Shown: positions 13,535-42,264 of the stretch, piece by piece
Layout of the letters: the number at the start of each line of letters is the position of its first letter
Numbering within the stretch: the stretch's first letter is position 1
Assembly: GCA_964436735.1 (NCBI GenBank)
Contig: CAYTFM010000002.1
Coordinates: 25,352 to 89,351 of the forward strand
DNA from: an uncultured Victivallales bacterium
GTDB taxonomy: Bacteria; Verrucomicrobiota; Lentisphaeria; Victivallales; GWF2-38-69
Direction: 5' to 3'
DNA: 64,000 bases
Notes under the pieces: model-generated
What the model saw: the letters and a program-made list of their open reading frames with translations, nothing else
The model's database searches: none
Told to the model about the DNA's origin: nothing
Program-made: the position numbers and the translations under genes

Positions 13535-14680
13535 GTGAAGGTTTCACAGGTTGTTTCCGTTGTCTTTCCCACATACGAGCGTCCCGCCGACATGGCGGAA
13601 ACGCTCAGACGCCTAAGGGAAAGCGTGACGATTCCGTACGAGGTCGTCATTCTTGACAACTCGTCCACCCCTACCGCTTCCGGCAAAGATTTCGCCGACA
13701 ACGAAAGATACGAGTTTCTTGGCGAGAACCTCGGAACAGTCTCAAGAAATATCGGAGTGGAAAAGTCCCAAGGGACGTTCGTGCTAATGCTTGACGACGA
13801 CTCGCATCCTCTTCCCGGAGCGCTTGAGAAGGCGGTGGCGTTTTTGACGGACCAGCCTGACGAGGTGGTGGGGCTTGGCGCGCGCGTCGAGAGGCTCGAC
13901 GGAGGGCGCGAGGGGCCGCCACTGCTGCCTACTGTTTTTCATGGATGCGGCGCGCTCTTCCGGAAGGACGCCCTTGCCGTCTGCGGGACTCCATACCCCA
14001 AAGAGTTCGGATTCTACGCCGAGGAGTACTGGGTGGCGTTCCTGCTTCACTCCAAGGGGTTCAGCATCGGCTATACTGACGACTTCCGCGTGTGCCATAG
14101 GATGAGCTCCAGCGGAAGATCGAAAAAACGCATCCTTTTCCACCTGGTGCGGAACAACGACTGCATATGGAAGGCTTTCACGCCGGATAGATATCTCGAA
14201 GACGTGCTCTATGACACAAACCGCCGCTATGAGCTCATCGCACGCCACGAGGGGGTGCCTGAGGCCTACGCCGAGGCCAGGCAACAGCGGCTTGTCATGG
14301 GGGAAAGGAAGACGATGAGCGAGTCTGCCTTCAAGAAGGCAAGCCTCCTCAGTTCGTTCGAGAACAGCGTTTTTGGGCGCGGGAAACGCGCGGCGCGGTT
14401 CCCCAATACAATGCTTCTGTGCGGGGTCGGCAAATTCCCTTCCTTGTGGGCGAAGCACCTCCGCGCAGCAGGTGTGAAGGATGTCATTCTCTCCGATTTC
14501 AATAAAGCCTTGTGGGGCAAGGATTTCAACGGCTTTATTGTTGTCAGCCCTGATGAGGCGCTGATGAAGGCACAGGGAGGTGCCATGCCGTACGTGGGTC
14601 ATTCCTCCCGTGCCGATTCCGACACATGGCGGGAATTGCTCGCTGCTAAGAGCCTTACGTATAAGGACATCGTCTTATGA
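13535..14680 (+). CDS. Family 2 glycosyltransferase with a C-terminal Rossmann-like domain
   Basis: VSVVFPTYERPADMAETL...VVILDNSS...VLMLDDDSHP is a GT-A N-terminus with a DxD. I infer an in-frame GTG start at 13535 just after the regulator stop. The longer ORF from 13337 overlaps the previous gene. Confidence 0.8.
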   Translation: MKVSQVVSVVFPTYERPADMAETLRRLRESVTIPYEVVILDNSSTPTASGKDFADNERYEFLGENLGTVSRNIGVEKSQGTFVLMLDDDSHPLPGALEKAVAFLTDQPDEVVGLGARVERLDGGREGPPLLPTVFHGCGALFRKDALAVCGTPYPKEFGFYAEEYWVAFLLHSKGFSIGYTDDFRVCHRMSSSGRSKKRILFHLVRNNDCIWKAFTPDRYLEDVLYDTNRRYELIARHEGVPEAYAEARQQRLVMGERKTMSESAFKKASLLSSFENSVFGRGKRAARFPNTMLLCGVGKFPSLWAKHLRAAGVKDVILSDFNKALWGKDFNGFIVVSPDEALMKAQGGAMPYVGHSSRADSDTWRELLAAKSLTYKDIVL

Positions 14681-15231
14681 TGGCTTCCGGAACCGCGGCG
14701 AAATATGTCATTCTCGACCGGGACGGGACGCTCATTGTCGAAAAGAATTATCTCAGCGATCCAGAAGGCGTCGAGCTACTACCCGGCGCCGTCGAAGGAC
14801 TTCGCCGGCTTGCGGAGGCGGGCTATAGGTTCGTCGTCATCACCAACCAGTCGGGTGTCGGGCGAGGCTACTTCCCGTTGTCGGCCGTGGAAGCGGTGAA
14901 TGAACGGCTTGTGTCGCTGCTTGAAACCGAGGGAATCCGTCTTGACGGCGTGTATGTGTGCCCGCATGCTCCAGACGAGAAGTGCGCCTGCCGCAAGCCA
15001 CAGATTGGAATGATTCGAAAGGCGGCGTCCGAGCTCGGCTTCGACGTATCAGGCTGCTGGGTGGTCGGCGACAAGGCGGTGGATGTCGAACTCGGGAAAA
15101 ACGCTGGTGCGAAAGCCATTCTTGTCCGGACAGGATATGGCGCCAGCCTCGAGTCTTCTCTGCCTGTAGCTCCGGACGCGGTGGCCGACAATCTCGCTGC
15201 TGTGGCGGATGTGATCTTAGGGAGGAGGTGA
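14677..15231 (+). CDS. gmhB: D-glycero-D-manno-heptose 1,7-bisphosphate 7-phosphatase (HAD-IIIA)
   Basis: HAD motif I is ILDRDGTL. VVITNQSGVGRGYF is present. The Zn-finger insert is CPHAPDEKCACRKP. GDKAVDVELGKNAGA is present. An ATGA overlap joins it to the preceding gene. Confidence 0.85.
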   Translation: MMASGTAAKYVILDRDGTLIVEKNYLSDPEGVELLPGAVEGLRRLAEAGYRFVVITNQSGVGRGYFPLSAVEAVNERLVSLLETEGIRLDGVYVCPHAPDEKCACRKPQIGMIRKAASELGFDVSGCWVVGDKAVDVELGKNAGAKAILVRTGYGASLESSLPVAPDAVADNLAAVADVILGRR

Positions 15232-18011: not shown

Positions 18012-18459
18012 GCTGTCTAAGGACATGCGGGATTTTTTGAATCTCTTGAACTCGCATGAGGTCGAATATCTTGTGTGCGGGGGGCATGCGGTCGGTTTCC
18101 ACGGGTACCCAAGGCTTACAATGGACTTGGATGTTCTTGTCAAACCGACACGGCAGAATGCGGTCAAGGTCATGGCTGCTCTTAAAGATTTCGGGTTCGG
18201 CGAAGCAGGGATTGACATTGTCATGCTCCTACGGAAGGGTGTTGCCATCACGTTGGGCTCGCAACCCAATCAAATAGACATTCTGACTTCTATTTCAAAG
18301 AATGATCCGCCACGTCTTTTCAACAACAAGGTCTGCGGAGTTCTTGACGACATCCCTGTGGGATTTGTGGCAAAGGATGACCTCCTCCGCGCAAAGAGGG
18401 CGGCGGGGCGCGCGAAAGATCTCGCCGATGTCGAAGAATTGGAGAAATTTGGTCGATGA
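17986..18459 (+). CDS. Minimal nucleotidyltransferase-fold protein (MNT-like), paralogue 3
   Basis: FLNLLNSHEVEYLVCGGHAVGFHGYPRLTMDLDVLV is the NTase signature. The C-terminus is LLRAKRAAGRAKDLADVEEL. Confidence 0.7.
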   Translation: MARRKQANKLSKDMRDFLNLLNSHEVEYLVCGGHAVGFHGYPRLTMDLDVLVKPTRQNAVKVMAALKDFGFGEAGIDIVMLLRKGVAITLGSQPNQIDILTSISKNDPPRLFNNKVCGVLDDIPVGFVAKDDLLRAKRAAGRAKDLADVEELEKFGR

Positions 18460-19184: not shown

Positions 19185-20894
19185 ATGATACGCACTTTCA
19201 GGCAATTATCCGTTCTGTTCACACGAAGGGAAAAGCTTTTTTGTATCGGGCTGGTTGCGATGATGCTTGCGTCTGCAATAATGGAAATAGTTGGCATCGG
19301 CATGGTCATGCCTGTCATCGCCTTGCTCTCCAAACCTGAGCTTATCGAACAGAATAAGTATTTACGGCTGACAAAAGAGTTCATCGGGCCATCCTCCAGT
19401 GAAAGCTTCATTTTCAATTTATGCCTCGTTCTGATCGTGGTTTTCATTTTGAAGAATGCATTCCTAACTGTCCAGAACTACGTTCAAGCCCGTTTCATTT
19501 ACGCGAAAGGTGCCCGAATCGCTTCGCAACTATTCGACAACTACCTCCATGCACCATACAAGTTTCATTTGACGAACAACGCCGGACAACTCATGGGAAC
19601 ATTATCGCTTGCGAACAACGTCTGCCACGGTGTTCTTATCCCTCTGATGATCCTTCTCACGGAGGCGATTGTCGTTGTTTGCGTGCTCGCCATGCTGCTC
19701 ACCTTGGCCCCTTTGATGACATTATGCCTGGCCTGTGTTGTGCTTGCGATATCCGCTCTCGTATATTTCCCGTTCCGCTCGTTGAACAAATTGATTGGGG
19801 GACAATACACCAAAGAAATCCTTGAGTCCCACAAAATTGAGTTGCAGGGGCTGAAGGCTGTAAAGGAAAGCAAGTTGCGCAATGTGGAGGACTATTTCTC
19901 AGAGGAATATTCCAGGCATATGATAAGGCGCAACGAAGCCTCGGCGAATATTACTTTTATGGGCAATATGCCGCGATTCCTGATTGAGGCCCTTGTCGTC
20001 ACCCTCGGTATTGGAGCATTGGCGATTCTCGTCATTTCAGGAAAAACGCTTGGCTCAATAACCCTCATCCTGTCATTGTTCGCTGTTTCGTTAATACGGA
20101 TCATGCCGTCTATGAGTCGGATACAGTATAGCCTTACGACGATCCGACATCATCAGAACACATTCCAACCGCTGTATGACACACTTTTCTCTTTCGACAG
20201 GGAGGACAAGAAAGCCCAAAGAAGTGATTTGCCCTACAACAAGGAAATACGCATTGACGCAGTAAGTTTCAAATATGGGGAAGAATCTCCTGATATCTTT
20301 AAAAACTTCAGTTTGAATATCCCCAGAAACAGTTCGACAGCGTTTATCGGGCCGACTGGTTGTGGGAAAACCACGTTGGTTGACATTGTTCTCGGACTCT
20401 TGAAGCCCAATGAAGGAGCCATCAGGTGTGATGGGGTAAACATTGAAGAAAATCTCCCAATCTGGCAGAAACGTATTGGGTACGTTCCACAATTCATCTT
20501 CCTGCTCGATGACACCGTCAAGGCAAATGTCGCTTTTGGGCTGCCGCCGGACAAGATAGACGAAGATCGTGTGCGGGAATGTCTGCGGATGGCACAGATA
20601 CTTGATTTCATTGAAACGTTACCGAAGGGTGTAAACAATCTGGTTGGTGAGAACGGGATACGGCTGTCCGGAGGGCAGCGGCAACGGGTCGGCATCGCCA
20701 GAGCGCTCTACCACAACCCCGAAATTCTTGTCCTCGATGAGGCGACTTCCGCTTTGGACAACGATACAGAGAGGGCTTTTGTCGATGCGCTACAAACTCT
20801 TAAAGGAACGCTTACTATTCTCATGGTCGCGCACCGAATGAGTACCGTTCAGAACTGCGACAGCATCGTCACAATTGGGCAATCAAAAGTTTGA
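19185..20894 (+). CDS. ABC transporter, fused permease/ATPase, PglK/WlaB-like lipid-linked oligosaccharide flippase
   Basis: The 569-aa product has Walker A GPTGCGKTT, signature LSGGQRQR and Walker B ILVLDEATSALD. The N-terminal and TM regions parallel C. jejuni PglK: MPVIALLSKPELIEQNKYL vs MPFITLASDFSYFDRNKYL, LIRIMPSMSRI vs LYRLMPSANRI, and LVDIVLGLLKPNEGAI vs LVDLIIGLLKPKEGQI (PglK recalled from memory). Confidence 0.8.
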   Translation: MIRTFRQLSVLFTRREKLFCIGLVAMMLASAIMEIVGIGMVMPVIALLSKPELIEQNKYLRLTKEFIGPSSSESFIFNLCLVLIVVFILKNAFLTVQNYVQARFIYAKGARIASQLFDNYLHAPYKFHLTNNAGQLMGTLSLANNVCHGVLIPLMILLTEAIVVVCVLAMLLTLAPLMTLCLACVVLAISALVYFPFRSLNKLIGGQYTKEILESHKIELQGLKAVKESKLRNVEDYFSEEYSRHMIRRNEASANITFMGNMPRFLIEALVVTLGIGALAILVISGKTLGSITLILSLFAVSLIRIMPSMSRIQYSLTTIRHHQNTFQPLYDTLFSFDREDKKAQRSDLPYNKEIRIDAVSFKYGEESPDIFKNFSLNIPRNSSTAFIGPTGCGKTTLVDIVLGLLKPNEGAIRCDGVNIEENLPIWQKRIGYVPQFIFLLDDTVKANVAFGLPPDKIDEDRVRECLRMAQILDFIETLPKGVNNLVGENGIRLSGGQRQRVGIARALYHNPEILVLDEATSALDNDTERAFVDALQTLKGTLTILMVAHRMSTVQNCDSIVTIGQSKV

Positions 20895-20909: not shown

Positions 20910-21923
20910 ATGCGAAAACATGCGTTAATCACTGGCGTCACTGGGATGGTGGGCAGCCATCTTGCAGATTTTCTACTTGCCAATACCGATTGGAATGTGT
21001 TCGGTATGTGCCGGTGGCGCAGTCCCTTGGACAATGTTGAACACCTTCTTGACAGGGCCAACCGCAAAGACAGGCTGCATTTCGTGGATGGAGATCTTTG
21101 TGACTACCTTTCCCTCCAGAGGGTGGTTGCGGAAACGAGGCCTGATTATGTGTTCCACCTGGCGGCACAGAGCTATCCGAAAACAAGCTTCACTTCACCT
21201 TTGCAGACATATGATGTGAACATACTTGGAACAGAACGACTTCTGGAAGCGTTAAGATTTTGCGAAGGCATCGATCCGCTGATACATGTGTGTTCATCCT
21301 CGGAAGTTTTCGGCAGAGTGCCCCGTGAGAAGCTTCCGATAAATGAGGACTGTTCTTTTCATCCTGCATCCCCCTATTCGATCTCGAAGATCGGAACAGA
21401 TCTCATCGGACGCTTTCATGCGGAAGCATATGGACAGAAAGTGATGATCACACGGATGTTCACTCATACCGGACCACGTCGCGGAGACGTGTTCGTAGAG
21501 TCTACGTTTGCTAAGCAGATAGCGATGATTGAGGCGGGGCTTTTGCCTGCGGTGGTCAAGGTGGGGAACCTTGAGTCCCTGCGGACATGGGCGGATGTCC
21601 GCGACGCGGTGCGTGCATACCACATGCTCCTGACGGTCAACCCTATGCCTGGCGAGGTCTACAATATTGGAGGCAGCCATACGTGCTCAGTCAGGCAGAT
21701 GCTGGAATTTCTAGTTTCCTGCTCGATGCGGAAAGACATCGCTGTCGAGGTGGATCCCGAGCGCCTTCGTCCTCTCGACGCCGATCTGCAGGTCCCCGAC
21801 CTCCGCAAATTCAAAGAGCACACAGGATGGGAGCCGCACATTCCCTTTGAGACGACGATGCGCGACCTGCTTGACTATTGGCGGAACAGAATCCAGTCAG
21901 GGAAAAACTTTCTTCTGCGATAA
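20910..21923 (+). CDS. GDP-mannose 4,6-dehydratase family SDR (candidate GDP-heptose 4,6-dehydratase, DmhA/WcbK-like)
   Basis: ALITGVTGMVGSHLADFLL is the Rossmann motif. SPYSISK is the YxxxK. MFTHTGPRRGDVFVE is the GMD-type GPRRG motif. Confidence 0.75.
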   Translation: MRKHALITGVTGMVGSHLADFLLANTDWNVFGMCRWRSPLDNVEHLLDRANRKDRLHFVDGDLCDYLSLQRVVAETRPDYVFHLAAQSYPKTSFTSPLQTYDVNILGTERLLEALRFCEGIDPLIHVCSSSEVFGRVPREKLPINEDCSFHPASPYSISKIGTDLIGRFHAEAYGQKVMITRMFTHTGPRRGDVFVESTFAKQIAMIEAGLLPAVVKVGNLESLRTWADVRDAVRAYHMLLTVNPMPGEVYNIGGSHTCSVRQMLEFLVSCSMRKDIAVEVDPERLRPLDADLQVPDLRKFKEHTGWEPHIPFETTMRDLLDYWRNRIQSGKNFLLR

Positions 21924-21993: not shown

Positions 21994-22803
21994 ATGTCTG
22001 ACACAATCACATTATTGACCAAAAAATCAAAAGATGTATTTAGAGAGACCCTGCTGTTGCACAAGAGGGCTCCCTCAACCCGTATTGCGTCCGCCTTATC
22101 GACGGTCGAAGTGTTCACCGTTCTCGCCTATGGCGGGTTCTTCGACATCACCAGCAAGAAAGACAGATTCATAATAAGTAAAGCGCATGGATGCTTTTCC
22201 CTCTATCCAATTCTTGCGGATATGGGGATTTTCAGTAAGGATGAGTTAGTCAACATCGGGCGGGAAGGGGCGCTTTTGGGAACGATTCCTGACTGTAATG
22301 TGCCAGGAATCATCAACAACGGAGGCGCTCTCGCCAACGGTTTGGGGCTGGCCTGCGGAATCGCTCTTGCGATGAAACGCAAGGAGCGACCTGACAACGT
22401 GTGCGTGTTTCAAGGTGATGGAGAGTGCAACGAAGGAGCTTTTTGGGAAGCCATGATTTTTGCGGCATTCCATCGCTTAGACAATATCGTGCTTATCATC
22501 GATGACAACAAACTTTCAATGCTTGGCCGTCAGGAGGAGATACTTGGGCTCAATCCGATGGACAAGAAGTTTCGCGCGTTGGGGTGGAATGCTCAAACTA
22601 TAGACGGTCATAATATAAAGGCCCTCTATACGAAATTGAAGGAGTTAATCCCAGCACGTCGTGAAAAGCCTAAAGTACTGATCGCCAATACGGTAAAAGG
22701 GAAAGGTATCCCTGCGCTTGAGGGTAATCCGCTGTGTCATATTGTGTCGATGACGGCGGCGGAGGTAGATAATGCGATATCCAAGATGGGAGTATCTCAA
22801 TGA
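21994..22803 (+). CDS. Transketolase, N-terminal (ThDP pyrophosphate-binding) subunit, pair 1
   Basis: SKAHGCFSLYPILADMG is present. The ThDP-Mg motif is GDGECNEGAFWEA. LIIDDNKLSM is present. The 269-aa length is typical of split transketolases. Confidence 0.85.
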   Translation: MSDTITLLTKKSKDVFRETLLLHKRAPSTRIASALSTVEVFTVLAYGGFFDITSKKDRFIISKAHGCFSLYPILADMGIFSKDELVNIGREGALLGTIPDCNVPGIINNGGALANGLGLACGIALAMKRKERPDNVCVFQGDGECNEGAFWEAMIFAAFHRLDNIVLIIDDNKLSMLGRQEEILGLNPMDKKFRALGWNAQTIDGHNIKALYTKLKELIPARREKPKVLIANTVKGKGIPALEGNPLCHIVSMTAAEVDNAISKMGVSQ

Positions 22804-23717
22804 AATATATGCGTGACAGTTTTTTGGACTGCGTCTTCCAAGAGATGGGCGTCAGGAATGATACGTTTGTGCTGTCTGCCGATGTGGGAGCCCCAGCACT
22901 GGACAAGATCCGAACTCAATATCCGTCAAGATTCATAAACACAGGAATAGCTGAGCAGAATACTATTAACGTGGCGGTGGGACTTGCGCTTGAAGGTTTT
23001 CACGTCTATGTCTATGGTATTGCCACATTTTTTCTTCGGGCTGTTGATCAAATCCGGAATTCATTGCTGTTGACTCATCAACATACTCCCCTTCGCGTCA
23101 CTATTCTTGCGACTGGCAGAGGGATAAGCTATGAGACAGCCGGACCCACTCATCATTGTCTGGAAGACCTCCCAACATTCAGCGCATTTCCTGGTATTGA
23201 ATTATATGTGCCATCCGACGCTCTCATGGCTGGCGCGATGGCCAAGTGGATTTCAGGCAAAGGTGTGCGATATGTGTGTTGTGACGGGAAAAAGGTCCCG
23301 TCCATCTACCAAGATGGTCATCAGTTCGATTTCTCTGACGGATTCGTTGTCAGACGCGGCGGTGCGAAGTCGTGCATAGTTTCTCTTGGAGGTATGCTTG
23401 CCCTTGCCGAGGAGGTGACAGCGTTTATGCGGTCAAAAGGAATTGACGTCGGGGTGATCGATTTATTTGCTCCAACTGAGTTCAATAAAGAAAAGTTGCT
23501 GCTCGCACTTCAGACATATAAAAGTGTTGTTACCCTTGATGAGGGATACCGAGAGGAGGGCATTTTGGCCGTCCAACTCCAAAATCTACTTTTCGGAACG
23601 GGTGTCACGTTGCATAAATTCGGTTTTGAAAGAAAATATATTTTTGAGCCAGGCCCCCGTGAAATGCATTATAAAAATGCGGGAATAACTATTGACAACA
23701 TTGTGACGGCTCTGTAA
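22800..23717 (+). CDS. Transketolase, C-terminal (pyrimidine-binding) subunit, pair 1
   Basis: FINTGIAEQNTINVAVGLALEGFHVYV and GPTHHCLEDLPTFSAFPGIELYVPSD are present. An ATGA overlap joins it to the N-terminal subunit. Confidence 0.85.
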   Translation: MKYMRDSFLDCVFQEMGVRNDTFVLSADVGAPALDKIRTQYPSRFINTGIAEQNTINVAVGLALEGFHVYVYGIATFFLRAVDQIRNSLLLTHQHTPLRVTILATGRGISYETAGPTHHCLEDLPTFSAFPGIELYVPSDALMAGAMAKWISGKGVRYVCCDGKKVPSIYQDGHQFDFSDGFVVRRGGAKSCIVSLGGMLALAEEVTAFMRSKGIDVGVIDLFAPTEFNKEKLLLALQTYKSVVTLDEGYREEGILAVQLQNLLFGTGVTLHKFGFERKYIFEPGPREMHYKNAGITIDNIVTAL

Positions 23718-23777
23718 TCCCCCGAAGGGATCGTTCCATTTCCGCGTTCGAAGTTCACTCATTTATGGGCACCATTG

Positions 23778-24605
23778 ATGCACAACCAGTTTGAACAACT
23801 TGCGGCTGAAACAAGGCTAAGGATCTTTCAGGCCATTATGGCCGCTGGCAAAGGCCATATCGGTGGGGCATTATCCTGTGTCGACATCCTGGTTGCCCTC
23901 TATGACGGAGGCATCATGAACATCACCCCTCAAACACTCAAGGATCCCTGTCGAGACCGTTTTATAATGAGCAAGGGGCATGCGGGGGTTGCCTTATACT
24001 GTGTATTGTCGCGGAATGGTTTTTTCGCTGATTCGGAGATTGATTCCATGGGCCGAGGCGGATCAATGCTCGGTGAGCATCCCGATCACTTCATTCCTGG
24101 CGTCGAGGTTTCGAGTGGTTCATTGGGGCATGGTTTGGCTATTGGTGCAGGGATAGCCAAGGCTGCGAAACTCGACGGCCTCCCCTACCGTACTTTTGTG
24201 CTGATGGGTGATGGGGAGTGCCATGAAGGTAGTGTGTGGGAAGCCGCCATGGTGGCTGCCCACCACCGACTCGACAACCTCGTCGCCATAGTTGACCGCA
24301 ATGGACAAATCACCCTGGACTACACCGAAGACTGTCTTGCGTTGGAGCCATTAGACGCAAAATTCTCCGCATTTGGGTGGCAGGTCATTCAGGTTGACGG
24401 GCATGACATGAATGCTTTACTGGAAAGCCTTGCGGCGGCGAAGTCTGCCAATGCCGGTAAGCCGATTGCGATCATTGCAAAAACGATTAAGGGAAAGGGT
24501 GTCAGTTTTATGGAAGGATCGTTGAAGTGGCACCATGGCATGCCATCGCAGGGCGAGGGCAAATTCATTTTTGATGAACTCACCAAACAAACGAAAATAT
24601 TATGA
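23778..24605 (+). CDS. Transketolase, N-terminal subunit, pair 2
   Basis: GHIGGALSCVDILVALY, SKGHAGVALY, GDGECHEGSVWEA and IVDRNGQ are present. It is a paralogue of 21994-22803. Confidence 0.85.
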   Translation: MHNQFEQLAAETRLRIFQAIMAAGKGHIGGALSCVDILVALYDGGIMNITPQTLKDPCRDRFIMSKGHAGVALYCVLSRNGFFADSEIDSMGRGGSMLGEHPDHFIPGVEVSSGSLGHGLAIGAGIAKAAKLDGLPYRTFVLMGDGECHEGSVWEAAMVAAHHRLDNLVAIVDRNGQITLDYTEDCLALEPLDAKFSAFGWQVIQVDGHDMNALLESLAAAKSANAGKPIAIIAKTIKGKGVSFMEGSLKWHHGMPSQGEGKFIFDELTKQTKIL

Positions 24606-25600
24606 TGTGCGACACTGATACTCCTCAGAAAGCATATGATCTCCGCGATGCAGTGTTCGAAACGTTTCATGAACTCGCACGGGCTGATTGCAATTTGCTG
24701 TTCCTGACGGCCGACATGGGGGCGTGGAGTCTTTCGGAATTTAGAAAAGAGCTGCCTGGGCAATTTTTCAATGTCGGTATTGCCGAACAGACAATGATTG
24801 GCATGGCTGCCGGACTTGCGCACTCAGGGAAAAAGGTGGTCGTCTATGCGATCGCCCCATTTCTCGCCTTGCGGTGTCTCGAACATATCAAAATTGATTT
24901 ATGCCTGATGAATCTTCCCGTCACTGTTATTGGAGGAGGAGCGGGCGTGGCCTATGCGGGGGACGGGCCGACGCATTACGCGCTAGACGATTTGGCCGGT
25001 TTGATGGCTCTACCCGGTCTACGGATCTTCAATCCTGCTGATCCAGTCACAGCCCAGTCTGTCGCCCGAAGTGCCTACTGGGGTGGCGGCCCTTGCTATA
25101 TTCGTCTGGACAAGGGAGCATTCCCTCCCCTCGTCTCGCCCGAGTCCATCTCGCCCACTGGCTTCAGCACCTTGGCAAAAGGCGAGGGCTTGCTTCTGAT
25201 TGGCACAGGCACGTTGTCGCATGAATTGAAGTCTGTGTGCGCCGATTTAGCGAGTATGGGGATAGACACCAGCCTCCTGGACGTCTGGCAGCTTAAACCT
25301 CTTCCATTGACGCAACTCGTCGAACTCTGCAGAAAGTCGAAAGCGGTTGCCGTCGTAGAGGAGCACGTCTTTGCCGGTAGCTTGGCCGCTAACCTTGCCT
25401 GCGCCCTACTGGAGGCCGGTGTTAACGTCACGTACCTCCCCCTCTGCGCTGAAAGCTCCCTGGCTTTCAAATATGGGAACAGGGACTTCCTGCGTAGTCT
25501 GCTTGGCTTGGACATCAAAGCACTCCCATTAAAACTCAGTGAGTGGTTTCGCTCCGCCGCAGATCAGGTGGGCAACATCAAGCGGGCTTCAGCGATTTAA
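24602..25600 (+). CDS. Transketolase, C-terminal subunit, pair 2
   Basis: FFNVGIAEQTMIGMAAGLAHSGKKVVVYA and GPTHYALDDLAGLMALPGLRIFNPAD are present. It overlaps the N-terminal subunit stop. Confidence 0.85.
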   Translation: MMCDTDTPQKAYDLRDAVFETFHELARADCNLLFLTADMGAWSLSEFRKELPGQFFNVGIAEQTMIGMAAGLAHSGKKVVVYAIAPFLALRCLEHIKIDLCLMNLPVTVIGGGAGVAYAGDGPTHYALDDLAGLMALPGLRIFNPADPVTAQSVARSAYWGGGPCYIRLDKGAFPPLVSPESISPTGFSTLAKGEGLLLIGTGTLSHELKSVCADLASMGIDTSLLDVWQLKPLPLTQLVELCRKSKAVAVVEEHVFAGSLAANLACALLEAGVNVTYLPLCAESSLAFKYGNRDFLRSLLGLDIKALPLKLSEWFRSAADQVGNIKRASAI

Positions 25601-26421: not shown

Positions 26422-26449
26422 GCCTCTACCTGTGGCAAAGGTGGATACC

Positions 26450-27505
26450 ATGCATTGTCGTGTAGGACAGGGTACAGCGGGTAAAATTCCTGTAGAGGAG
26501 AATAAGTGGATCTCTGTGCTCACACGTGGCATTGATTTGGGGATGACGCTTATTGACACGGCCGAAGCCTACCTCGATGGATTCGCTGAGAAAGTGGTGG
26601 GGAAGGCGATCTCCGGAAAGCGGGATCAAGTTTTCTTGTGCACAAAAGTTAGTCCTGAACATGCGGACAAGTGTGGCACGATTCACGCTTGCGAGCAAAG
26701 CTTGCGCCGCCTGGGAACTGACCATGTCGACTGTTACTTTATCCACTGGCCTTCCACAACAATACCACTTGAGGAGACCGTGGAAGCGTTTATGGCATTG
26801 CGTCAGCAAGGGAAGATCCGGCATTATGGGTTGAGTAATTTTGGGCTTGCGGCTTTTAAGCCACTCCGTGAAAAACATGGGGATGTGCTTTGGGGGCTTG
26901 AGCTTGAGTACAATTTGACATGCCGTCTGCCAGAGGATGAAATACTGCCATTGGCGGAGAGCGATGATTTTATGTTTTTGGCTTACACTCCCTTGCGAAT
27001 GCCGCAACATGGTCAAGACGTTCTGACACGCATCGCCCGGAAATATGACTGTTCGATCCAGCAACTTGCCATCCGATGGGTCATGCGCTACCCTAATGCC
27101 ATCCCCATACCGATGACCTTTGCTATGGATCACGTTCAACAAAATGCCGCCGCAGCGAATTTGGAGATAAGCAACCAAGATCTGTTCTCTATATCTGAAA
27201 GATTTTCTGCCACACGTATAATGGTTGCCCCTTCGCTCATACGAATTGCTTCAGGCGGCGATCAATCTGTTTATACGACGCTTGAAGAGGCCGTAGCCAA
27301 TCCGGCGAACCTCTCCCCTAGTCCTCTGGCGATAGCGGAGGACTTCCGTAACGGTGGCGAAGCCCTTATGCCAGTGAAACTCATTGTTGCTGAAAATGAC
27401 CCCTCTGGAGCAGCATACTACCTCGTTCAAGGGCGAGTGAGATATTGGGGGTGGGTCATCGCATTTGGATGGGAGAGACCTATTCCGGCTCTCATTCTTC
27501 CATGA
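26450..27505 (+). CDS. Aldo/keto reductase with a C-terminal extension of about 100 aa resembling a ParB/sulfiredoxin-fold domain
   Basis: The AKR tetrad context is LIDTAEAY (D, Y), VFLCTKV (K) and YFIHWP (H). After about residue 250 comes IMVAPSLIRIA...SPSPLAIAEDFRNGGEALMPVKLIVAEND..AAYYLVQGRVRYWGWVIAFGWERPIPALIL. This fits the ParB N-terminal domain pattern (I-x-V, L-A-x-S-I, G-x-L-x-P-V, Y-x-L-V-x-G-x-x-R, G-x-x-x-I-P-A). The start could also be GTG 26432. Confidence 0.75.
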   Translation: MHCRVGQGTAGKIPVEENKWISVLTRGIDLGMTLIDTAEAYLDGFAEKVVGKAISGKRDQVFLCTKVSPEHADKCGTIHACEQSLRRLGTDHVDCYFIHWPSTTIPLEETVEAFMALRQQGKIRHYGLSNFGLAAFKPLREKHGDVLWGLELEYNLTCRLPEDEILPLAESDDFMFLAYTPLRMPQHGQDVLTRIARKYDCSIQQLAIRWVMRYPNAIPIPMTFAMDHVQQNAAAANLEISNQDLFSISERFSATRIMVAPSLIRIASGGDQSVYTTLEEAVANPANLSPSPLAIAEDFRNGGEALMPVKLIVAENDPSGAAYYLVQGRVRYWGWVIAFGWERPIPALILP

Positions 27506-27572
27506 CAAAGATGAGGTATCTGCAGGCGATTATGCCCAAGTTCGAAGTTATATTACGTTTATTAGGCGACTT

Positions 27573-28616
27573 ATGAGAATGAATAAAGCAGTCAAGTCGA
27601 TCGTTAGAAAATTATTCATGTATTACGGTTTTAACCTGATAAGGAATCCTGTTGCTTGCCAGCGAATCCCGTTCGCCTCCTTCATGAACTCCAACAATTT
27701 AAGGTTTGATCTTATCAAGGGATATCGTCATGCCACCTGGCCATTGTCGTGGAGTGCCTTGTTTGATGACCGAGCAATACCAAACGGAGAGACAGTTCGC
27801 AATTTATGCTTTGCCGAAAAAGGAAGGCTCCAAGTTCGAGAGTTGGCCCGTTTTCTACAATTATGGGGGATTGAGCTTGCACAGAAGAAGATATTGGAGA
27901 TCGGATGTTTTTGCGGATCGGCATGTTATGCGTTGGTAGAGGCCGGGGCAAAGCAAGTTGACGGGATAGATGTGGCCGCCCATTTCACGCATGTGAAACA
28001 TCCCACAGATGAGGCTGTGAGAGAGCAATTCTGTTACCTCGACCAACTCAGGCATGCTGTGGCAGGTGAGTTTTTCCAGCATTCGGCAGTGGATATAAGC
28101 GAGAAAGTTCGATTCAGCAGTTGTGATGTTGTCGACTTAACAAATCATGACGCATATGACTTGATAATAAGCTGGGGGACCATGGAGCACATCAGCGACC
28201 CCCGAAAGGCTTTACGAAAGATATATGACGCATTGCGGCCGGGGGGGGTTACCGTGCACAACTACCAATCTTTTTTTTGCGAAACAGGCGCTCATTTCGA
28301 CACGCTTGATTTCCCTTGGGGGCACGTGAGGCTTTCATCTGAAGATTTCCGTCGCTATATCAGCCAATTCCGCACCGATGAGGCCGAGGTGGCGGAATGG
28401 CGTTTTTTCGACACCTTAAACCGAATGACCGTTGCAGACGTCAAGGAGTATGTCGAAAGCGCAGGATTGGAGCTCATTGACTTTGTGACTCTGACATCTC
28501 CGGACATCATGTCGCTTGATGCTGACATTCTGCCCCAGTCCCGCCAAAATTACCCGAATGTGGTGATTGCCGATCTTCTCGGGAAAAACAACTGGCTGAT
28601 CGCACGGAAACCATAG
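27573..28616 (+). CDS. Class I SAM-dependent methyltransferase
   Basis: Motif I is ILEIGCFCGSACYALVEAG. The post-I motif is VDGIDV. LRPGGVTV is also present. The start is set at ATG 27573, after the AKR stop. The gene contains a G8 run (28241-28248) and a T8 run (28271-28278). Confidence 0.75.
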   Translation: MRMNKAVKSIVRKLFMYYGFNLIRNPVACQRIPFASFMNSNNLRFDLIKGYRHATWPLSWSALFDDRAIPNGETVRNLCFAEKGRLQVRELARFLQLWGIELAQKKILEIGCFCGSACYALVEAGAKQVDGIDVAAHFTHVKHPTDEAVREQFCYLDQLRHAVAGEFFQHSAVDISEKVRFSSCDVVDLTNHDAYDLIISWGTMEHISDPRKALRKIYDALRPGGVTVHNYQSFFCETGAHFDTLDFPWGHVRLSSEDFRRYISQFRTDEAEVAEWRFFDTLNRMTVADVKEYVESAGLELIDFVTLTSPDIMSLDADILPQSRQNYPNVVIADLLGKNNWLIARKP

Positions 28617-28738: not shown

Positions 28739-29743
28739 ATGCTACCTGACTCAGTTTTGTCCGATTTTGCCAAATCCAGCTGCTTGGTCACGGGAGGCAC
28801 AGGATTGATTGGACTGCAAATAGTTAAATTGCTGTTTGATGCAGGCGCAAAAGTGAAAGTGGCTTCGCTAGACCGCCTCGTCGTTGATTCTCGTGCGGAA
28901 CATGTAATTGCGGACTTGACCGACATGAGCATGTGCCTGGAGTTAACGAAAAGCATTGAGTATGTGTTTCATGTCGCAGGCATCAAAGGATCTGTCGAGG
29001 TCACCAAGTCCAAACCAGCCAGCTTCTTTGTTCCCTTGTTGCAGATGAACACAAACATGCTGGAGGCAGCCCGTCGCAACAATGCGCGCAAGGTTGTTTA
29101 CACAAGTTCCATTGGAGCATACCCAGCCGCGGAGGTGTTCGAGGAAGGAATGGGGATGGATGGACCACCGATGGACATGTTTCCGGGGTGGGCGAAGCGC
29201 ATGGCTGAATTACAGGTGGAAACCTACCGGATCCAGTATGGGTTGAAAAACTTCTCAGTCGTTCGCCCGTGTAATGTCTACGGTCCAGGCGATAATTTTG
29301 ACCCGGGAAATGCGATGGTAATTCCCACACTCATGGCCCGCATACGACGTGGTGATGATCCTGTTCCTGTGTGGGGTGACGGCTCGGCTGTGCGCGATTT
29401 CGCCTTCAGCCGTGATGTGGCCGAAGGGGTTATTCAGGCACTGTATCACGAAACAGGCGGATATCCTTTCCTGAACTTGGCAAGCGGCTCTGGTTACAGC
29501 GTCCGTGAATTGGTGGAAACGTTGCAGCGAATCGTGCCATTCAACGCCTTCTTTGACACAACCAAACCAAGTGGTTTCCCACGTCGCGTCATGTCAATTA
29601 CTGCCGCCCGAGAAACTATCAATTACAATCCATCCACGAGTTTGGAGCAAGGTTTGCGAGAGACATGGGAATGGTATGTGGCGAATGCAGACGAGTTCAA
29701 ACAAAAAAAGAACTATTTCAGAGAGGGGGATTTGGAACAGTGA
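28739..29743 (+). CDS. NAD-dependent epimerase/reductase, GDP-L-fucose synthase (Fcl/WcaG)-like SDR, copy 1
   Basis: CLVTGGTGLIGLQIV is present. YTSSIGAY...WAKRMAE is a YxxxK-like motif. VRPCNVYGPGDNFD and WGDGSAVRDFAFSRDVA are present. A GGGAGG SD precedes the ATG. Confidence 0.75.
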   Translation: MLPDSVLSDFAKSSCLVTGGTGLIGLQIVKLLFDAGAKVKVASLDRLVVDSRAEHVIADLTDMSMCLELTKSIEYVFHVAGIKGSVEVTKSKPASFFVPLLQMNTNMLEAARRNNARKVVYTSSIGAYPAAEVFEEGMGMDGPPMDMFPGWAKRMAELQVETYRIQYGLKNFSVVRPCNVYGPGDNFDPGNAMVIPTLMARIRRGDDPVPVWGDGSAVRDFAFSRDVAEGVIQALYHETGGYPFLNLASGSGYSVRELVETLQRIVPFNAFFDTTKPSGFPRRVMSITAARETINYNPSTSLEQGLRETWEWYVANADEFKQKKNYFREGDLEQ

Positions 29744-30252
29744 TCGCGGTTGAAGCAACAAAACTTGACGGAGTACGCCTCGTACGTCTTTCCCCCTACG
29801 AGGATTTTCGTGGATGGTATATTGAGACATATAATGAGGACATGTACCGTGAAAATGGAATCGACATGCACTTTGTGCAAGACGATATTTCCATTTCGGC
29901 ACGGAATGTCCTGCGCGGAATTCATGGAGATGCTGAAACATGGAAATTAATCTCCTGCCTCGAAGGACAATTCTACTTGGTGGTGGTGAATTGCGATGAA
30001 ACCTCTCCGCAATTTAAGCAATGGCAAGCATTCACGTTATCGGAACACAATCGAATTCAAATTCTCATCCCCCCAAAATTCGGGAATGGGCATCTTGTGC
30101 TCAGTGAGCGAACGATTTTCCATTACAAGCAAACGACATACTACAACCCCAAAGGACAGTTCACCTATAGGTGGAACGACGAGTCGCTTGGCATCTGGTG
30201 GCCAAGCAAAACCCCGATCGTATCTCAACGTGACGAGCGTGGACATTTCTAA
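29740..30252 (+). CDS. RmlC-like cupin, NDP-4-keto-6-deoxy-sugar 3,5-epimerase family
   Basis: FEDFRGWYIETYN...RGIHGD...KLISCLEGQFYLVVVN...LIPPKFGNGHLVLSE matches the dTDP-4-dehydrorhamnose 3,5-epimerase fold. The GTG start overlaps the previous stop (GTGA). Confidence 0.8.
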   Translation: MIAVEATKLDGVRLVRLSPYEDFRGWYIETYNEDMYRENGIDMHFVQDDISISARNVLRGIHGDAETWKLISCLEGQFYLVVVNCDETSPQFKQWQAFTLSEHNRIQILIPPKFGNGHLVLSERTIFHYKQTTYYNPKGQFTYRWNDESLGIWWPSKTPIVSQRDERGHF

Positions 30253-30270
30253 CTTTTTGGAGTGAGTATC

Positions 30271-31224
30271 ATGTTTGTGGGTAAAAAAATACTTGTCGCC
30301 GGCGCCGCTGGCTTTATTGGGGTAAACCTGATCAGCCGTCTGCTACGGACGGACGCATTCGTAAGGGGCACGCTTCACAAGCGCGGTGCAATTGTCGATA
30401 ATCCTCGCATCGAGTATGTCCGCGGCGACCTAACCACCGAAGAGGCTTGCAGGGTGGCTTGTGCGGGAATGGATTACGTCTTTGTCTGCTCTGCCGTCAC
30501 CTCCGGTGCGGCTGTCATGGAGAAAACGCCGTTGTGCCACCTCACGCCCAATCTGGTCATGAACGCCAGGCTGCTTGAGGCCGCCTATGCGGCGGGCGTG
30601 GAGAAATTCCTCTTCGTAAGTAGTAACACGGTGTATCCTGTCTCCGAAGCGCCCATGGCCGAAAATGACTGCACGAATGAGTTCTTCGAGAAATACCATA
30701 TCGTAGCTTGGATGAAACGGTTTTCGGAGATCATGTGCGACATGTATGCGCGGCGCATCAAGAAGCCGATGACGACGATTGTCGCCCGCCCGGCGAACTG
30801 CTATGGCCCATATGACAAGTTCGACTGGGAAACATCACATGTCCTTCCGGCACTTATCCGTAGGGTCGTCGAGCGGCACAATCCCATGAACATCTGGGGT
30901 GATGGACGGGATATCAAAGACTTCATCTATGTGGACGATCTTGTTGAAGGACTCGTGCTCGCCATGGATCGCATCACCGGTTACGAAGAGATCAACATCG
31001 CCAGCGGTAATGAATATTGCCTGCGCGAAATGCTTGATTTGTTGCTGGACATTGATGGGTTCAAGGAGGCGCGGATTATTTTCGACCCCAGCAAACCGAC
31101 CATGATCCCCAAACGCTTGATTAATCCCGGGAAGGCTGAATCACTGCTTGGGTTCAAGGCGAAAACCTCCATAGAGGAAGGGTTCCGACGAACTCTCGCC
31201 TGGTATAGGAGCACACTCGCATGA
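30271..31224 (+). CDS. NAD-dependent epimerase/reductase, Fcl-like SDR, copy 2
   Basis: ILVAGAAGFIGVNLISRLL, FVSSNTVYP, YHIVAWMKR (YxxxK), RPANCYGPYDKFD and WGDGRDIKDFIYVDDLV are present. Confidence 0.78.
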   Translation: MFVGKKILVAGAAGFIGVNLISRLLRTDAFVRGTLHKRGAIVDNPRIEYVRGDLTTEEACRVACAGMDYVFVCSAVTSGAAVMEKTPLCHLTPNLVMNARLLEAAYAAGVEKFLFVSSNTVYPVSEAPMAENDCTNEFFEKYHIVAWMKRFSEIMCDMYARRIKKPMTTIVARPANCYGPYDKFDWETSHVLPALIRRVVERHNPMNIWGDGRDIKDFIYVDDLVEGLVLAMDRITGYEEINIASGNEYCLREMLDLLLDIDGFKEARIIFDPSKPTMIPKRLINPGKAESLLGFKAKTSIEEGFRRTLAWYRSTLA

Positions 31225-32210
31225 TCATCAGTCGTACCCCCTTTCGCATTTCATTTTTTGGCGGTGGAACTGATTATCCCGCTTATTATAACGAACACGG
31301 CGGAATGGTGCTCGGGACCACCATCAACAAGTTCTGTTACGTGACCACCCGCTATCTACCTCCCTTTTTCGACCATGCCTACCGGATCCGCTACACCAGA
31401 CGCGAGGAGGTTCGAACAGTGGACGAGATCCAGCATCCGTCCGTACGTGAATGCCTTAAGTATACGGCTCTGGAGCGTGGGGTGGAAGTGGTTCACACAA
31501 GTGATATTCCGGCGATGTCGGGTATTGGGTCAAGCTCCGCGTTCACTGTTGGCTTACTTCATACGCTGTACGCCCTTCAAGGGAAAATGGTCACTAAGCG
31601 CAAACTTGCCTTTGACGCAATTCATATTGAACAAGATATGATACAAGAGTCGGTTGGGTCTCAGGATCAGGTTGCGGCGGCGTTCGGCGGTTTCAATATC
31701 GTCACCTTTGGGGGGAGCGAGGGCATTTTTGTTCAACCTGTGACGATTGGCGAAGAGCGACTTCAACACATTCAGTCCTGTCTCATGCTCTGTTTCACAG
31801 GTTTCTCGAGGTACTCCTCCGATATCGCTCGAGAGCAGGTCAAGAACACGTCCTCCCGCCAAGTCGAACTGCGTCGTATCCACGAAATGGTCGACGAGGC
31901 CAGAGAGATACTCTCCAGTCACTCAGGTTCTCTTGATGAGTTTGGCCGACTATTGGGTGAGTCCTGGGAAGTCAAGCGTGGACTGAGCAGTAAAATCACC
32001 ACGACGGAAATCGACCAGATCTACGACACCGCCATTCGAGCCGGAGCGTTGGGTGGGAAACTGTGCGGAGCCGGAGGTGGCGGCTTCATGTTGCTGTATG
32101 CTTTGCCGGAAACACATCGGAAAATCAAGGAAGCTCTCAAGAATCTGCTTTTTGTTCCGTTCAGGTTTGAGACCTTGGGGTCGCATATCGTATTCTATGC
32201 GGAAGAATGA
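31221..32210 (+). CDS. hddA: D-glycero-alpha-D-manno-heptose 7-phosphate kinase (GHMP kinase, HddA/WcbL-like)
   Basis: MIISRTPFRISFFGGGTDYPAYYNEHGGMVLGTTINKFCYV is the characteristic HddA N-terminus. GHMP motif II is SDIPAMSGIGSSSAF. GAGGGGFMLLY is present. Confidence 0.82.
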   Translation: MIISRTPFRISFFGGGTDYPAYYNEHGGMVLGTTINKFCYVTTRYLPPFFDHAYRIRYTRREEVRTVDEIQHPSVRECLKYTALERGVEVVHTSDIPAMSGIGSSSAFTVGLLHTLYALQGKMVTKRKLAFDAIHIEQDMIQESVGSQDQVAAAFGGFNIVTFGGSEGIFVQPVTIGEERLQHIQSCLMLCFTGFSRYSSDIAREQVKNTSSRQVELRRIHEMVDEAREILSSHSGSLDEFGRLLGESWEVKRGLSSKITTTEIDQIYDTAIRAGALGGKLCGAGGGGFMLLYALPETHRKIKEALKNLLFVPFRFETLGSHIVFYAEE

Positions 32211-32236: not shown

Positions 32237-33214
32237 ATGCATGACGAAACCATGCCTTGCGATTTACTTGAAGGAAAGAGAGTTCTTGTCACCGGGGCCA
32301 CCGGACTGGTTGGAGTTCACACACTTTCGCGGCTGCAGAACCGGAAAGGCGTTTTCATCAGAGCGGTTGTTCACACAAGAAAGCCTAGTGTATCCGCCCC
32401 AAATATCTCTTATGTCGATGCTGACTTGACACAAGCGGCTGATTGCCGCCGAGCGGTCGAGGACATTGATTATGTCCTCATGTTCGCGGCGAAGATCGAC
32501 CGCAGAAACACAGGTTTAGAATCCGCTTTGCAAACCCTTTTTATTAACACACATATGCTTGAGGCATCATATCAGGCAGGCGTGAAAAAGGTTCTTTGGC
32601 TCAGTTCCGCGACAGCGTATCCTGTGTCAACCTCCCCACTCAAGGAGGAGCAATTGTTCGAAGGCAACCCTCACGAATCCTATTTTGCATTAGGGTGGAC
32701 GACCCGCTACATCGAGAAACTGTGCGAGACCTATGCGTTGAGATTACCGCGCCGCATGCCAATCGTCGTTCTGCGCCCTACAACCATATACGGCCCGTGG
32801 GGGGATTTCGAATTCGCCACGTCTCACGTGCTCTCCGCACTTATTCGCAGAGTTGCGGAACGTCAGTCACCACTCGAAATCTGGGGAACGGGTGAGACAC
32901 GCCGTGACTTCATTTACGTTGATGATGTCGTGGACGCCTGCCTGCTTGCTCTTGAGAAAGTGGACGCATATGGGGTCTTCAATATCGGCACAGGGGTGAC
33001 CTATAGCGTCAAGGAGTTGATTGATTATATTCTGGCAGTTGACGCCCTCCCGCTGGTGGAGGTTGTATACGACGCCTCGAAGCCGGTGAAGGCACCGTCG
33101 ATCGCCGTTGATTGCGCAAAAGCCAGGACAGAGCTTTGTTTCACCGCTAAGACGTCGTTGACCATAGGTATTAGGAAGACAATGGAGTGGTTGAAGAAGC
33201 ACTACCGCCTTTGA
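32237..33214 (+). CDS. NAD-dependent epimerase/reductase, Fcl-like SDR, copy 3
   Basis: VLVTGATGLVGVHTLSRL, WLSSATAYP, YFALGWTTR, LRPTTIYGPWGDFE and WGTGETRRDFIYVDDVV are present. Confidence 0.75.
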   Translation: MHDETMPCDLLEGKRVLVTGATGLVGVHTLSRLQNRKGVFIRAVVHTRKPSVSAPNISYVDADLTQAADCRRAVEDIDYVLMFAAKIDRRNTGLESALQTLFINTHMLEASYQAGVKKVLWLSSATAYPVSTSPLKEEQLFEGNPHESYFALGWTTRYIEKLCETYALRLPRRMPIVVLRPTTIYGPWGDFEFATSHVLSALIRRVAERQSPLEIWGTGETRRDFIYVDDVVDACLLALEKVDAYGVFNIGTGVTYSVKELIDYILAVDALPLVEVVYDASKPVKAPSIAVDCAKARTELCFTAKTSLTIGIRKTMEWLKKHYRL

Positions 33215-33228
33215 CAGGAGGGCACGCA

Positions 33229-35449: not shown

Positions 35450-35542
35450 TGCAATCGACGCTCAACACTCACCCAGTTTGGCGCATCCGCTGCTTCTCCG
35501 TAGTACTGTGAAGACAAGCTTTGCGCAGTTGAAGGAGTGTGT

Positions 35543-42262: not shown

Positions 42263-42264
42263 CA

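Follow-up and report, generated by a model that had tools for sequence, protein, structure and literature searches.

Two dissimilar split transketolase-fold gene pairs as candidate carboligases of a GDP-heptose-type glycan cluster in an uncultured Victivallales bacterium

In yersiniose synthesis, YerE adds a pyruvate-derived two-carbon (C2) unit to the C4 ketone of CDP-3,6-dideoxy-4-keto-glucose, and the reductase YerF follows. To our knowledge, such thiamine diphosphate (ThDP)-dependent C-branching of nucleotide keto-sugars is established for two folds only, the YerE type and the E1 alpha/beta type. The E1 alpha/beta pairs (alphaKADH2) are pyruvate-dependent acetyl-branching enzymes of deoxy-keto sugars, as in aldgamycin, kosinostatin and kibdelomycin (KbDH-alpha/beta) (PMC12247030). 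Split-gene transketolases of miharamycin and amipurimycin have been proposed to place a hydroxyacetyl branch onto a keto sugar, a reaction never shown in vitro, and the 13 predicted sugar-branching split transketolases all belong to Streptomyces secondary metabolism, none of them being characterised (PMC12247030). Here, we analysed a 64,000-nucleotide stretch of DNA (contig CAYTFM010000002.1, positions 25,352 to 89,351; referred to as the window) from an uncultured Victivallales bacterium, in which two consecutive split transketolase-fold gene pairs, pair 1 and pair 2, lie within a glycan cluster. Our favoured reading, an evenly balanced judgement, is that the two pairs are ThDP carboligases dedicated to a module for the tailoring of GDP-(6-deoxy)heptose and not housekeeping transketolases.

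An earlier note on this DNA, made from its letters, had described two consecutive N-subunit/C-subunit pairs at 21994-25600, with overlapping subunit genes and conserved ThDP and pyrimidine-binding motifs, placed after a 4,6-dehydratase gene and followed downstream by an aldo-keto reductase (AKR) gene. This description is borne out. The four open reading frames (ORFs) match their Pfam families with E-values of 1e-20 to 7e-39, the two neighbouring genes are confirmed at the positions given in Table 1, and the translations of the pairs contain the GDG(X)nN stretches GDGECNEGAFWEA and GDGECHEGSVWEA together with the pyrimidine-side motifs GPTHH and GPTHY. An ATGA overlap forms both intra-pair junctions (22800-22803 in pair 1 and 24602-24605 in pair 2). 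A Shine-Dalgarno-like AAGAGGAA is present 5' of the pair 1 start at 21994, and the pair 2 N subunit has alternative starts at TTG 23775 or ATG 23778. No third transketolase-like gene was found within the 64-kb window.

The closest PDB relative of all four subunits is the characterised housekeeping split transketolase of Carboxydothermus hydrogenoformans (ChTK, 6yak/6yaj), with E-values of 6e-36 and 2e-24 for the N and C subunits of pair 1 and of 2.3e-61 (6yak) and 4e-38 (6yaj) for those of pair 2. ChTK shares with the pairs its alpha2beta2 split architecture and the ThDP motifs. The N subunits of the two pairs are 36% identical and fall into separate clades; the pairs belong to different families and are not recent duplicates. 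Against NF004559, the best NCBIfam transketolase equivalog (cutoff 488), pair 1 reaches 170 + 116 = 286 bits and pair 2 reaches 265 + 136 = 401 bits, the sum of N and C half scores against a full-length model being a rough measure; by this curated cutoff neither pair qualifies as a canonical transketolase. DXS models give 36-44 bits for the N subunit and 68-102 bits for the C subunit of pair 1 (cutoffs 395-466), and 36-115 bits for the split genes (cutoffs 395-510), in which the single-polypeptide layout of DXS is absent. The pair 1 N subunit scores 80 bits on Transketolase_N against 36 bits on E1_dh (PF00676) and is not a member of the latter family. The YerE-type single-chain layout of TPP_enzyme_N/M/C is likewise absent, both pairs consisting of Transketolase_N and of Transket_pyr plus Transketolase_C.

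The two pairs differ most in their active sites. Both were aligned with ChTK, human transketolase and E. coli DXS segments from HMMER outputs (E. coli (Ec) numbering), and residue counts for pair 1 were taken over 85 related loci (N subunit, n=85; C subunit, n=81). The cofactor machinery, namely GDG(X)nN, Glu411 and His66, is present in both pairs and invariant across their families, and pair 1 additionally retains His261, His473 (80/81 relatives) and Arg358. At the donor site of pair 1, His26 is replaced by Arg (85/85 relatives) and His100 by Ile (83/85), leaving Arg, Ile and His at the positions of the ketol-donor trio His26/His100/His473, where pair 2 has three His. At the acceptor site, His461 is Gly in pair 1 and in 79/81 relatives, Asp469 is Ala in the window (Ser, Ala or Thr among the relatives) and Arg520 is Gly in the window (Gly, Ser or Ala among the relatives). 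In the yeast, E. coli and human transketolase structures, the acceptor phosphate is bound by His461 and Arg520 and the acceptor C2 hydroxyl by Asp469. Arg358 alone is retained at the acceptor phosphate site of pair 1, the Ser385 column being poorly aligned. ChTK has His26, His100, His461, Asp469 and Arg520, whereas pair 1 lacks all five, and the acceptor of pair 1 is predicted not to be an aldose phosphate.

DXS keeps the His26 equivalent and binds glyceraldehyde 3-phosphate via two arginines. It resembles pair 1 in belonging to the transketolase superfamily and, with pyruvate as its donor, in carrying a hydrophobic residue at the His100 position (Phe in DXS, Ile in pair 1, but His in pair 2), which in transketolase contacts the C1 hydroxyl of the ketol donor (PMC7661550); it differs in being a single chain, whereas pair 1 is split. 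In Geobacillus transketolase, the H100L or H100F change raises the use of pyruvate, which then reaches one third or one tenth of the activity of DXS (PMC7661550). From the losses at its donor site, the donor of pair 1 is therefore predicted to be a non-hydroxylated 2-oxo-acid, most simply pyruvate, delivering an acetyl-type C2 unit in the manner of DXS, YerE or the E1-type branching enzymes. As a side observation, the pair 1 C subunit of the window has Cys-Cys where 76/81 relatives carry the first Arg of a 'YIRL' stretch, and Cys occurs at that position in only three other copies of the 81 compared; the sub-clade of the window may bind its acceptor differently.

Pair 2, on the other hand, retains His26, His66, His100, His261, Arg358, Glu411, Asp469 and His473, and of the two pairs it alone looks able to transfer a ketol unit. 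It differs from ChTK in the phosphate pocket: His461 is Gly in 6/6 members of its clade and Arg520 is Lys in 5/6, pair 2 of the window included, while general split transketolases (n=70) have His461 in 44 and Arg520 in 58. The miharamycin and amipurimycin split transketolases, likened by description only, are the nearest precedent for pair 2.

In a neighbour-joining tree without bootstrap, with the E1 alpha of L095 as outgroup (L-numbers label the related loci used in the comparison), relatives of pair 1 form one clade outside the group made up of the pair 2 clade, the general split transketolases, ChTK and human transketolase. The pair 2 clade, a clade of glycan loci, clusters apart from the general split transketolases; these are 44-54% identical to pair 2 and occur in unrelated, non-glycan contexts. 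A pattern-based genome scan with pair 2 gave mostly general split transketolases; it provides a baseline and does not enumerate the pair 2 clade. For the pair 1 N subunit, 561 relatives were confirmed by tblastn (one genome per species), and the donor-site signature was inspected in 85 loci. The best 80 of these 561 loci are all from metagenome-assembled genomes (MAGs) and come from Omnitrophota, Planctomycetota, Verrucomicrobiota, Lentisphaerota, Nitrospirota, Desulfuromonadales/Geobacterales, Elusimicrobiota, Patescibacteria and a few Campylobacterota, as well as from a few archaea (Nanoarchaeota and Methanoperedenaceae). We rejected the possibility, suggested by an ERCC4-HhH gene of the window, that the split form reflects an archaeal host with its normal housekeeping transketolase: a flanking 990-aa protein has its closest matches in MAGs of Armatimonadota, Planctomycetota and Lentisphaerota, and a Lentisphaeria MAG supplies the nearest relative of pair 1 (71% identity). 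The host is thus a bacterium, probably one of the PVC group.

The gene neighbourhoods of pair 1 relatives were counted in the 44 loci having at least 8 kb on both sides. An HddA-like kinase is present in 38/44 of them, an HddC-like transferase in 37/44, an extended short-chain dehydrogenase/reductase (SDR) of any kind in 39/44, a DegT-family gene in 32/44 and a gene for a B12-binding radical S-adenosylmethionine (SAM) enzyme in 29/44; GmhB occurs in 6/44 and GmhA in 4/44. These neighbours nearly always share the strand of pair 1. Glycosyltransferases, ABC-2 transporter parts and methyltransferases also recur, and all-against-all ORF clustering over the 85 loci gave, as candidates for a further conserved unknown gene, only these three kinds and antisense shadow ORFs.

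In 57/64 copies of the DegT-family partner the catalytic Lys is replaced by His (motif FSFYFAHHMSTIE), and among the copies lying within 2.5 kb of pair 1 this holds for 39/39; for one His-type copy the top NCBIfam model is RfbH. His in place of Lys is the hallmark of the 3-dehydratases ColD and E1 (RfbH/AscC/DdhC). With the catalytic Lys changed to His, a role of this partner as an aminotransferase that aminates the new ketone was rejected for most loci. The usual pair 1 cassette would therefore comprise activation, 4,6-dehydration, C3 deoxygenation, a ThDP enzyme and reduction, an order that by analogy mirrors the logic of yersiniose synthesis: as with YerE/YerF of Yersinia pseudotuberculosis (yersiniose A), most pair 1 relatives have a 4,6-dehydratase and then an E1/ColD-type 3-dehydratase upstream. 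YerE differs in being a single-chain enzyme of the acetolactate-synthase/decarboxylase type acting on a CDP-hexose, whereas pair 1 has two subunits, a transketolase fold and a GDP-heptose setting. The 3-dehydratase is missing from the sub-clade to which the window belongs, and in this sub-clade a Gmd-like gene (70-79% identity) lies directly 5' of pair 1, as in L001, L003, L004, L010, L014, L021, L063 and L078. Two further arrangements were seen. In two Patescibacteria loci (L018 11669-13927 and L057 10830-13076) the His-type DegT is fused to an extended SDR domain and directly follows pair 1. A xylose-isomerase-like TIM-barrel gene (AP_endonuc_2), which could encode a sugar isomerase or epimerase of the pathway, is present in L028 (17699-18556), L059 (17875-18756), L177 (17780-18691) and L179 (17524-18315) and absent from the window.

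For pair 2, 10 loci of its clade were examined, i.e. the window, L003, L006, L078, L094, L095, L096, L177, L178 and L179. The typical order 3' of pair 2 is one or two AKRs (as in L003, L078, L094, L095, L096, L177 and L178), a CalS11-like gene and an Fcl-like SDR, followed farther away by an RmlC-like gene, another SDR and a heptose kinase. On the 5' side, another ThDP pair is present in 9/10 loci after a Gmd-like gene (often with a NUDIX gene), and it directly adjoins pair 2 in all of them but L003, in which genes for an aminotransferase and a YerE-like enzyme lie in between. This upstream pair is of the pair 1 type in 4/10 loci (the window, L003, L006 and L078) and an E1 alpha/beta pair (PF00676) in 5/10 (L094, L095, L096, L177 and L179); the E1 alpha of L095 has BCKDH/PDH E1 alpha as its top PDB matches (E 2e-36). 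Pair 1 and E1 alpha/beta thus alternate at one position, 3' of the Gmd-like gene and 5' of pair 2, an analogy of function and not of family membership, and this positional swap supports a pyruvate/acetyl role of pair 1 independently of its residues. E1 alpha/beta enzymes also resemble the pairs in having the PP domain in one subunit, with Pyr plus TKC domains in the other; they differ in that the known examples come from antibiotic clusters, whereas pair 1 is found in surface-glycan loci and forms its own clade.

Some members of the pair 2 clade have features of their own. The intervening YerE-like gene of L003 (13090-14745) is of the YerE/acetolactate-synthase type (TPP_enzyme_N/M/C) and brings the cluster to three ThDP enzymes. 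The C subunit of pair 2 carries an additional fused domain of ~300 aa in L096 (9831-11717) and L177 (9780-11705), with a weak Methyltransf_25 match in L096, and no homologue of this domain was found in the window. In L178 (2286-18828) a module of pair 2, AKR and CalS11-like gene lies directly 3' of flagellin, FlaG, FliD and FliS genes, and the modified heptose of this organism probably decorates flagellin.

The genes around the pairs are of the same types as those of the GDP-6-deoxy-heptose pathways of Campylobacter jejuni and Burkholderia (GmhA, HddA/WcbL, GmhB, HddC, DmhA, MlghB and MlghC). A heptose kinase, a guanylyltransferase, a Gmd-like 4,6-dehydratase, an RmlC-like epimerase, Fcl-like reductases and an O-methyltransferase are shared. 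Those pathways, in which we know of no ThDP enzyme and no AKR, include GmhA, whereas a tblastn search of the 64-kb window with an approximate E. coli GmhA query gave nothing better than E = 2; the same query found GmhA homologues in 6 other loci, and a GmhA gene hidden in the window was rejected. These genes support a sugar of the GDP-heptose type for the cluster, an assignment at family level only, since the kinase, guanylyltransferase and GmhB-like scores are below their equivalog cutoffs (Table 1).

From the observed genes, motifs, residue patterns, conservation and neighbourhoods, we infer the donors, the acceptor, the attacked position, the order of the pairs and the product of the following scheme. 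GDP-heptose would be made by the HddA-like kinase, the GmhB-type phosphatase and the HddC-like guanylyltransferase, and converted by the Gmd/DmhA-like enzyme (20910-21923) to GDP-6-deoxy-4-keto-heptose. Pair 1 (21994-23717) would decarboxylate pyruvate to hydroxyethyl-ThDP and put an acetyl-type C2 unit onto a carbonyl of the sugar, a YerE/E1-like reaction on a transketolase fold. In the reaction of pair 2 (23778-25600), hydroxypyruvate or a ketose phosphate would donate a glycolaldehyde (hydroxyacetyl) unit, and the acceptor would be a carbonyl of the nucleotide sugar and not an aldose phosphate. The new ketones may then be reduced by the AKR and the Fcl-like SDRs, and the CalS11-like and other methyltransferases may decorate the product before its transfer and export. 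C4 is the favoured position of attack. The earlier note had proposed that one or both pairs add C2 units to a GDP-keto-(deoxy)heptose. Its claims of pathway dedication and of a GDP-heptose-type sugar are supported by comparative evidence, and C2 addition to a 4-keto-6-deoxy intermediate is the most coherent reading, because the double-pair module recurs elsewhere, the active sites are non-canonical, E1 alpha/beta takes the place of pair 1 in other loci and the usual partner of pair 1 relatives is of the ColD/E1 type. Its treatment of the pairs as equivalent transketolases does not stand, pair 1 lacking the ketol-donor residues. AviB1/B2 of avilamycin, which the note cited as a branching enzyme and which may be counted with the E1 alpha/beta type, is not mentioned in the review of E1 alpha/beta branching enzymes (PMC12247030).

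More speculatively, and with considerable doubt, the pair 1 family may constitute a third, transketolase-fold class of pyruvate-dependent enzymes that C-acylate GDP-heptoses, acting in window-like loci in series with the ketol-transferring pair 2 to give a doubly extended or branched C9-C11 sugar in a surface or flagellin glycan.

Several observations weigh against the scheme. A single C4 ketone as the target of both pairs would put them in competition, and a sequential scheme therefore needs a second carbonyl. Simple C4 branching should suit hexoses too, and it does not explain why pair 1 is tied almost exclusively to heptose-activation genes. The window departs from the yersiniose route in having no ColD/E1-type 3-dehydratase; its sole DegT gene (44363-45484) keeps the Lys and probably serves another sugar, because it lies at a distance of 19 kb, next to a dehydratase of its own. 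Across the loci, AKR number does not follow the number of ThDP pairs. The His26-to-Arg call comes from a MAFFT alignment of a weakly conserved N-terminal stretch that HMMER left unaligned. For either clade, the function assigned is a prediction from sequence and neighbourhood. Finally, L178 has no pair 1, and its pair 2 lies directly after GmhA and GmhB, which fits a role in precursor supply.

In such a role, which the earlier note had offered as its duller alternative, one or both pairs would be ordinary transketolases raising sedoheptulose 7-phosphate as a precursor of GDP-heptose. A heptose is the predicted product of the cluster, and pair 2, with its identity to general split transketolases, keeps all donor-site and catalytic residues as well as Arg358 and the first Arg of the YIR motif, and has Lys in place of Arg520. 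For pair 1, however, canonical binding of either a ketol donor or an aldose phosphate is predicted to be impossible, and its active site makes a supply role very unlikely for it. For pair 2 the same role is weakened by the remodelled phosphate pocket, with His461 lost in every member of the clade, by the constant company of AKR, CalS11-like and SDR tailoring genes, and by the general absence of GmhA, which is needed to use the product and is missing from the 64-kb window, 40/44 well-flanked pair 1 loci and 9/10 pair 2 loci; the arrangement in L178 keeps it alive. A housekeeping tkt is also normally to be expected in bacterial hosts. Taken over both pairs, precursor supply seems improbable.

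The strong tie of pair 1 to heptose genes leaves room for chain extension on exocyclic carbons, in which the acceptor would be an aldehyde or ketone on C6-C7 of GDP-heptose, generated by an SDR or a B12-radical-SAM diol dehydratase, and the product a C9 (or C11) sugar. Heptose-activation genes accompany pair 1 in 40/44 loci and B12-radical-SAM genes in 29/44, these radical SAM proteins scoring weakly on the AprD4 diol-dehydratase model. Transketolase-fold enzymes normally favour alpha-hydroxy aldehydes, and pair 2 keeps Asp469, the reader of that hydroxyl. However, the gene directly upstream in the window and in its closest relatives encodes a 4,6-dehydratase, which removes the C6 hydroxyl and creates a C4 ketone, the ColD/E1-type partner likewise acts on 4-keto sugars, and no enzyme known to oxidise C7 was identified. 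We consider exocyclic extension unlikely. Still less probable is a non-sugar substituent, i.e. an acyloin-like unit (acetoin or dihydroxybutanone) or an acetyl or glycolyl donor made from pyruvate and a ketol and later put on the glycan: a C4 acyloin could be assembled by two ThDP enzymes that use different donors and then reduced by the AKRs that follow them, and phosphoketolase, of the same superfamily, can form acetyl-ThDP, but the pairs have no conserved acyl carrier, ligase or acyltransferase beside them, their conserved neighbours being without exception nucleotide-sugar enzymes, and both the yersiniose parallel and the E1 alpha/beta swap indicate a sugar as the acceptor.

Table 1. Genes of the two pairs and of the surrounding glycan cluster, in window coordinates.
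Feature	Coordinates	Strand	Supporting matches and remarks
GmhB-like heptose 1,7-bisphosphate 7-phosphatase (HAD-IIIA)	14677..15231	+	NF006506 171 bits (cutoff 178); TIGR00213 123 bits; Pfam HAD; outside low-GC block
PglK/MsbA-like ABC exporter (flippase-type), first gene of block	19185..20894	+	Pfam ABC_tran plus ABC_membrane; PglK model 327 bits, below cutoff
Gmd/DmhA-like GDP-sugar 4,6-dehydratase	20910..21923	+	PF16363 E 2.6e-76; TIGR01472 gmd 180 bits (cutoff 415)
Pair 1 N subunit (PP domain), non-canonical transketolase-like family 'TK1'	21994..22803	+	Pfam Transketolase_N E 1.7e-22
Pair 1 C subunit (Pyr plus TKC domains)	22800..23717	+	Transket_pyr E 1.1e-20; Transketolase_C E 2.1e-11
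Pair 2 N subunit (PP domain), glycan-locus clade of split transketolases 'TK2'	23778..24605	+	Transketolase_N E 6.6e-39
Pair 2 C subunit (Pyr plus TKC domains)	24602..25600	+	Transket_pyr E 1.1e-28; Transketolase_C
CalS11-like nucleotide-sugar O-methyltransferase, 253 aa	25660..26421	+	PDB 4gf5/3tos CalS11 E 2.5e-61
AKR, candidate reducer of the ketone from the ThDP step	26432..27505	+	PF00248 E 9e-49
Class I SAM methyltransferase	27465..28616	+	Pfam Methyltransf_23/12/25/11
Fcl/MlghC-like SDR (C4 reductase or epimerase-reductase type)	28739..29743	+	Pfam Epimerase E 5e-44; GDP-L-fucose synthase model 145 bits, below cutoff
RmlC/MlghB-like cupin 3,5-epimerase	29665..30252	+	PF00908 E 1.2e-48; TIGR01221 146 bits (cutoff 156)
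Second Fcl-like SDR	30262..31224	+	
HddA/WcbL-like heptose kinase (GHMP)	31221..32210	+	Top PDB matches are heptose kinases 3k85 (E 2e-44), WcbL 4usk and HddA 4n3o; NCBIfam HddA 149 bits, below cutoff
Third Fcl-like SDR	32237..33214	+	
B12-binding radical SAM enzyme (methyltransferase or dehydratase type)	33187..34539	+	Pfam B12-binding plus Radical_SAM; PhpK, HpnJ and AprD4 models below cutoff
HddC-like heptose-1-phosphate guanylyltransferase	35537..36265	+	NF049965 HddC 152 bits (cutoff 300); Pfam NTP_transferase

The glycan genes run on one strand from 19185 onward, and further members of the cluster encode glycosyltransferases, a second B12-radical-SAM protein and a PMT_2 membrane glycosyltransferase. 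The G+C content is 0.47-0.53 over a block of ~18-50 kb (18000-50000) against 0.57-0.62 in the flanks, which suggests that the block was horizontally acquired, the same module being found in several phyla. The first methyltransferase after pair 2 stands where the earlier note placed it, but the label 'TylF-type' given to it does not hold: its TylF match is weak (E 3e-4) against that to CalS11, a TDP-rhamnose 3'-O-methyltransferase. Orthologues of it with 61-66% identity are present in L003, L049, L078, L095 and L096, and orthologues of the first Fcl-like SDR in the module loci are 64-72% identical. The cupin gene probably starts 3' of 29743, its PF00908 match beginning at residue 32.

A separate branch of the cluster, its second, is for an amino-deoxy-sugar and consists of a LegB/RmlB-like 4,6-dehydratase and a Lys-containing PseC/DegT-type aminotransferase (43371-45484). 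The cluster also holds four ORFs of 256-387 aa (34559-35449, 37251-38021, 38968-39795 and 42070-43233) that have no Pfam or NCBIfam match, and none of them is conserved among the related loci compared. Directly 5' of the ABC exporter lies an ERCC4 nuclease with helix-hairpin-helix (HhH) motifs (XPF/Hef-like; 18456-19172), which is unusual for a bacterial glycan locus. Between the GmhB gene and the glycan block, two small ORFs (15939-16415 and 17986-18459) with weak matches to AbiEii-toxin and DUF6036 nucleotidyltransferase families may be remnants of a toxin-antitoxin system at the edge of the island.

A literature search on transketolase-like genes in GDP-heptose, O-antigen, Leptospira rfb or flagellin-glycosylation loci gave nothing relevant beyond the 2025 review (PMC12247030). 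The addition of C2 units to nucleotide keto-sugars by ThDP enzymes is known chemistry; what would be new here is the different fold, the organisms and the sugar. Branching by a transketolase fold has hitherto been a proposal limited to the 13 Streptomyces clusters (PMC12247030), and the loci described here suggest that uncultured bacteria have a far larger reservoir of it among their surface-glycan genes. The signature of Arg for His26 and Ile for His100 predicts a pyruvate donor, and it is an interesting and as yet unexplained feature that two different ThDP pairs are used in tandem. If the favoured reading is true, it would give a function to hundreds of glycan-cluster genes now named 'transketolase', would predict new higher-carbon or branched heptoses, and would provide new carboligases for tertiary alcohols and extended sugars.

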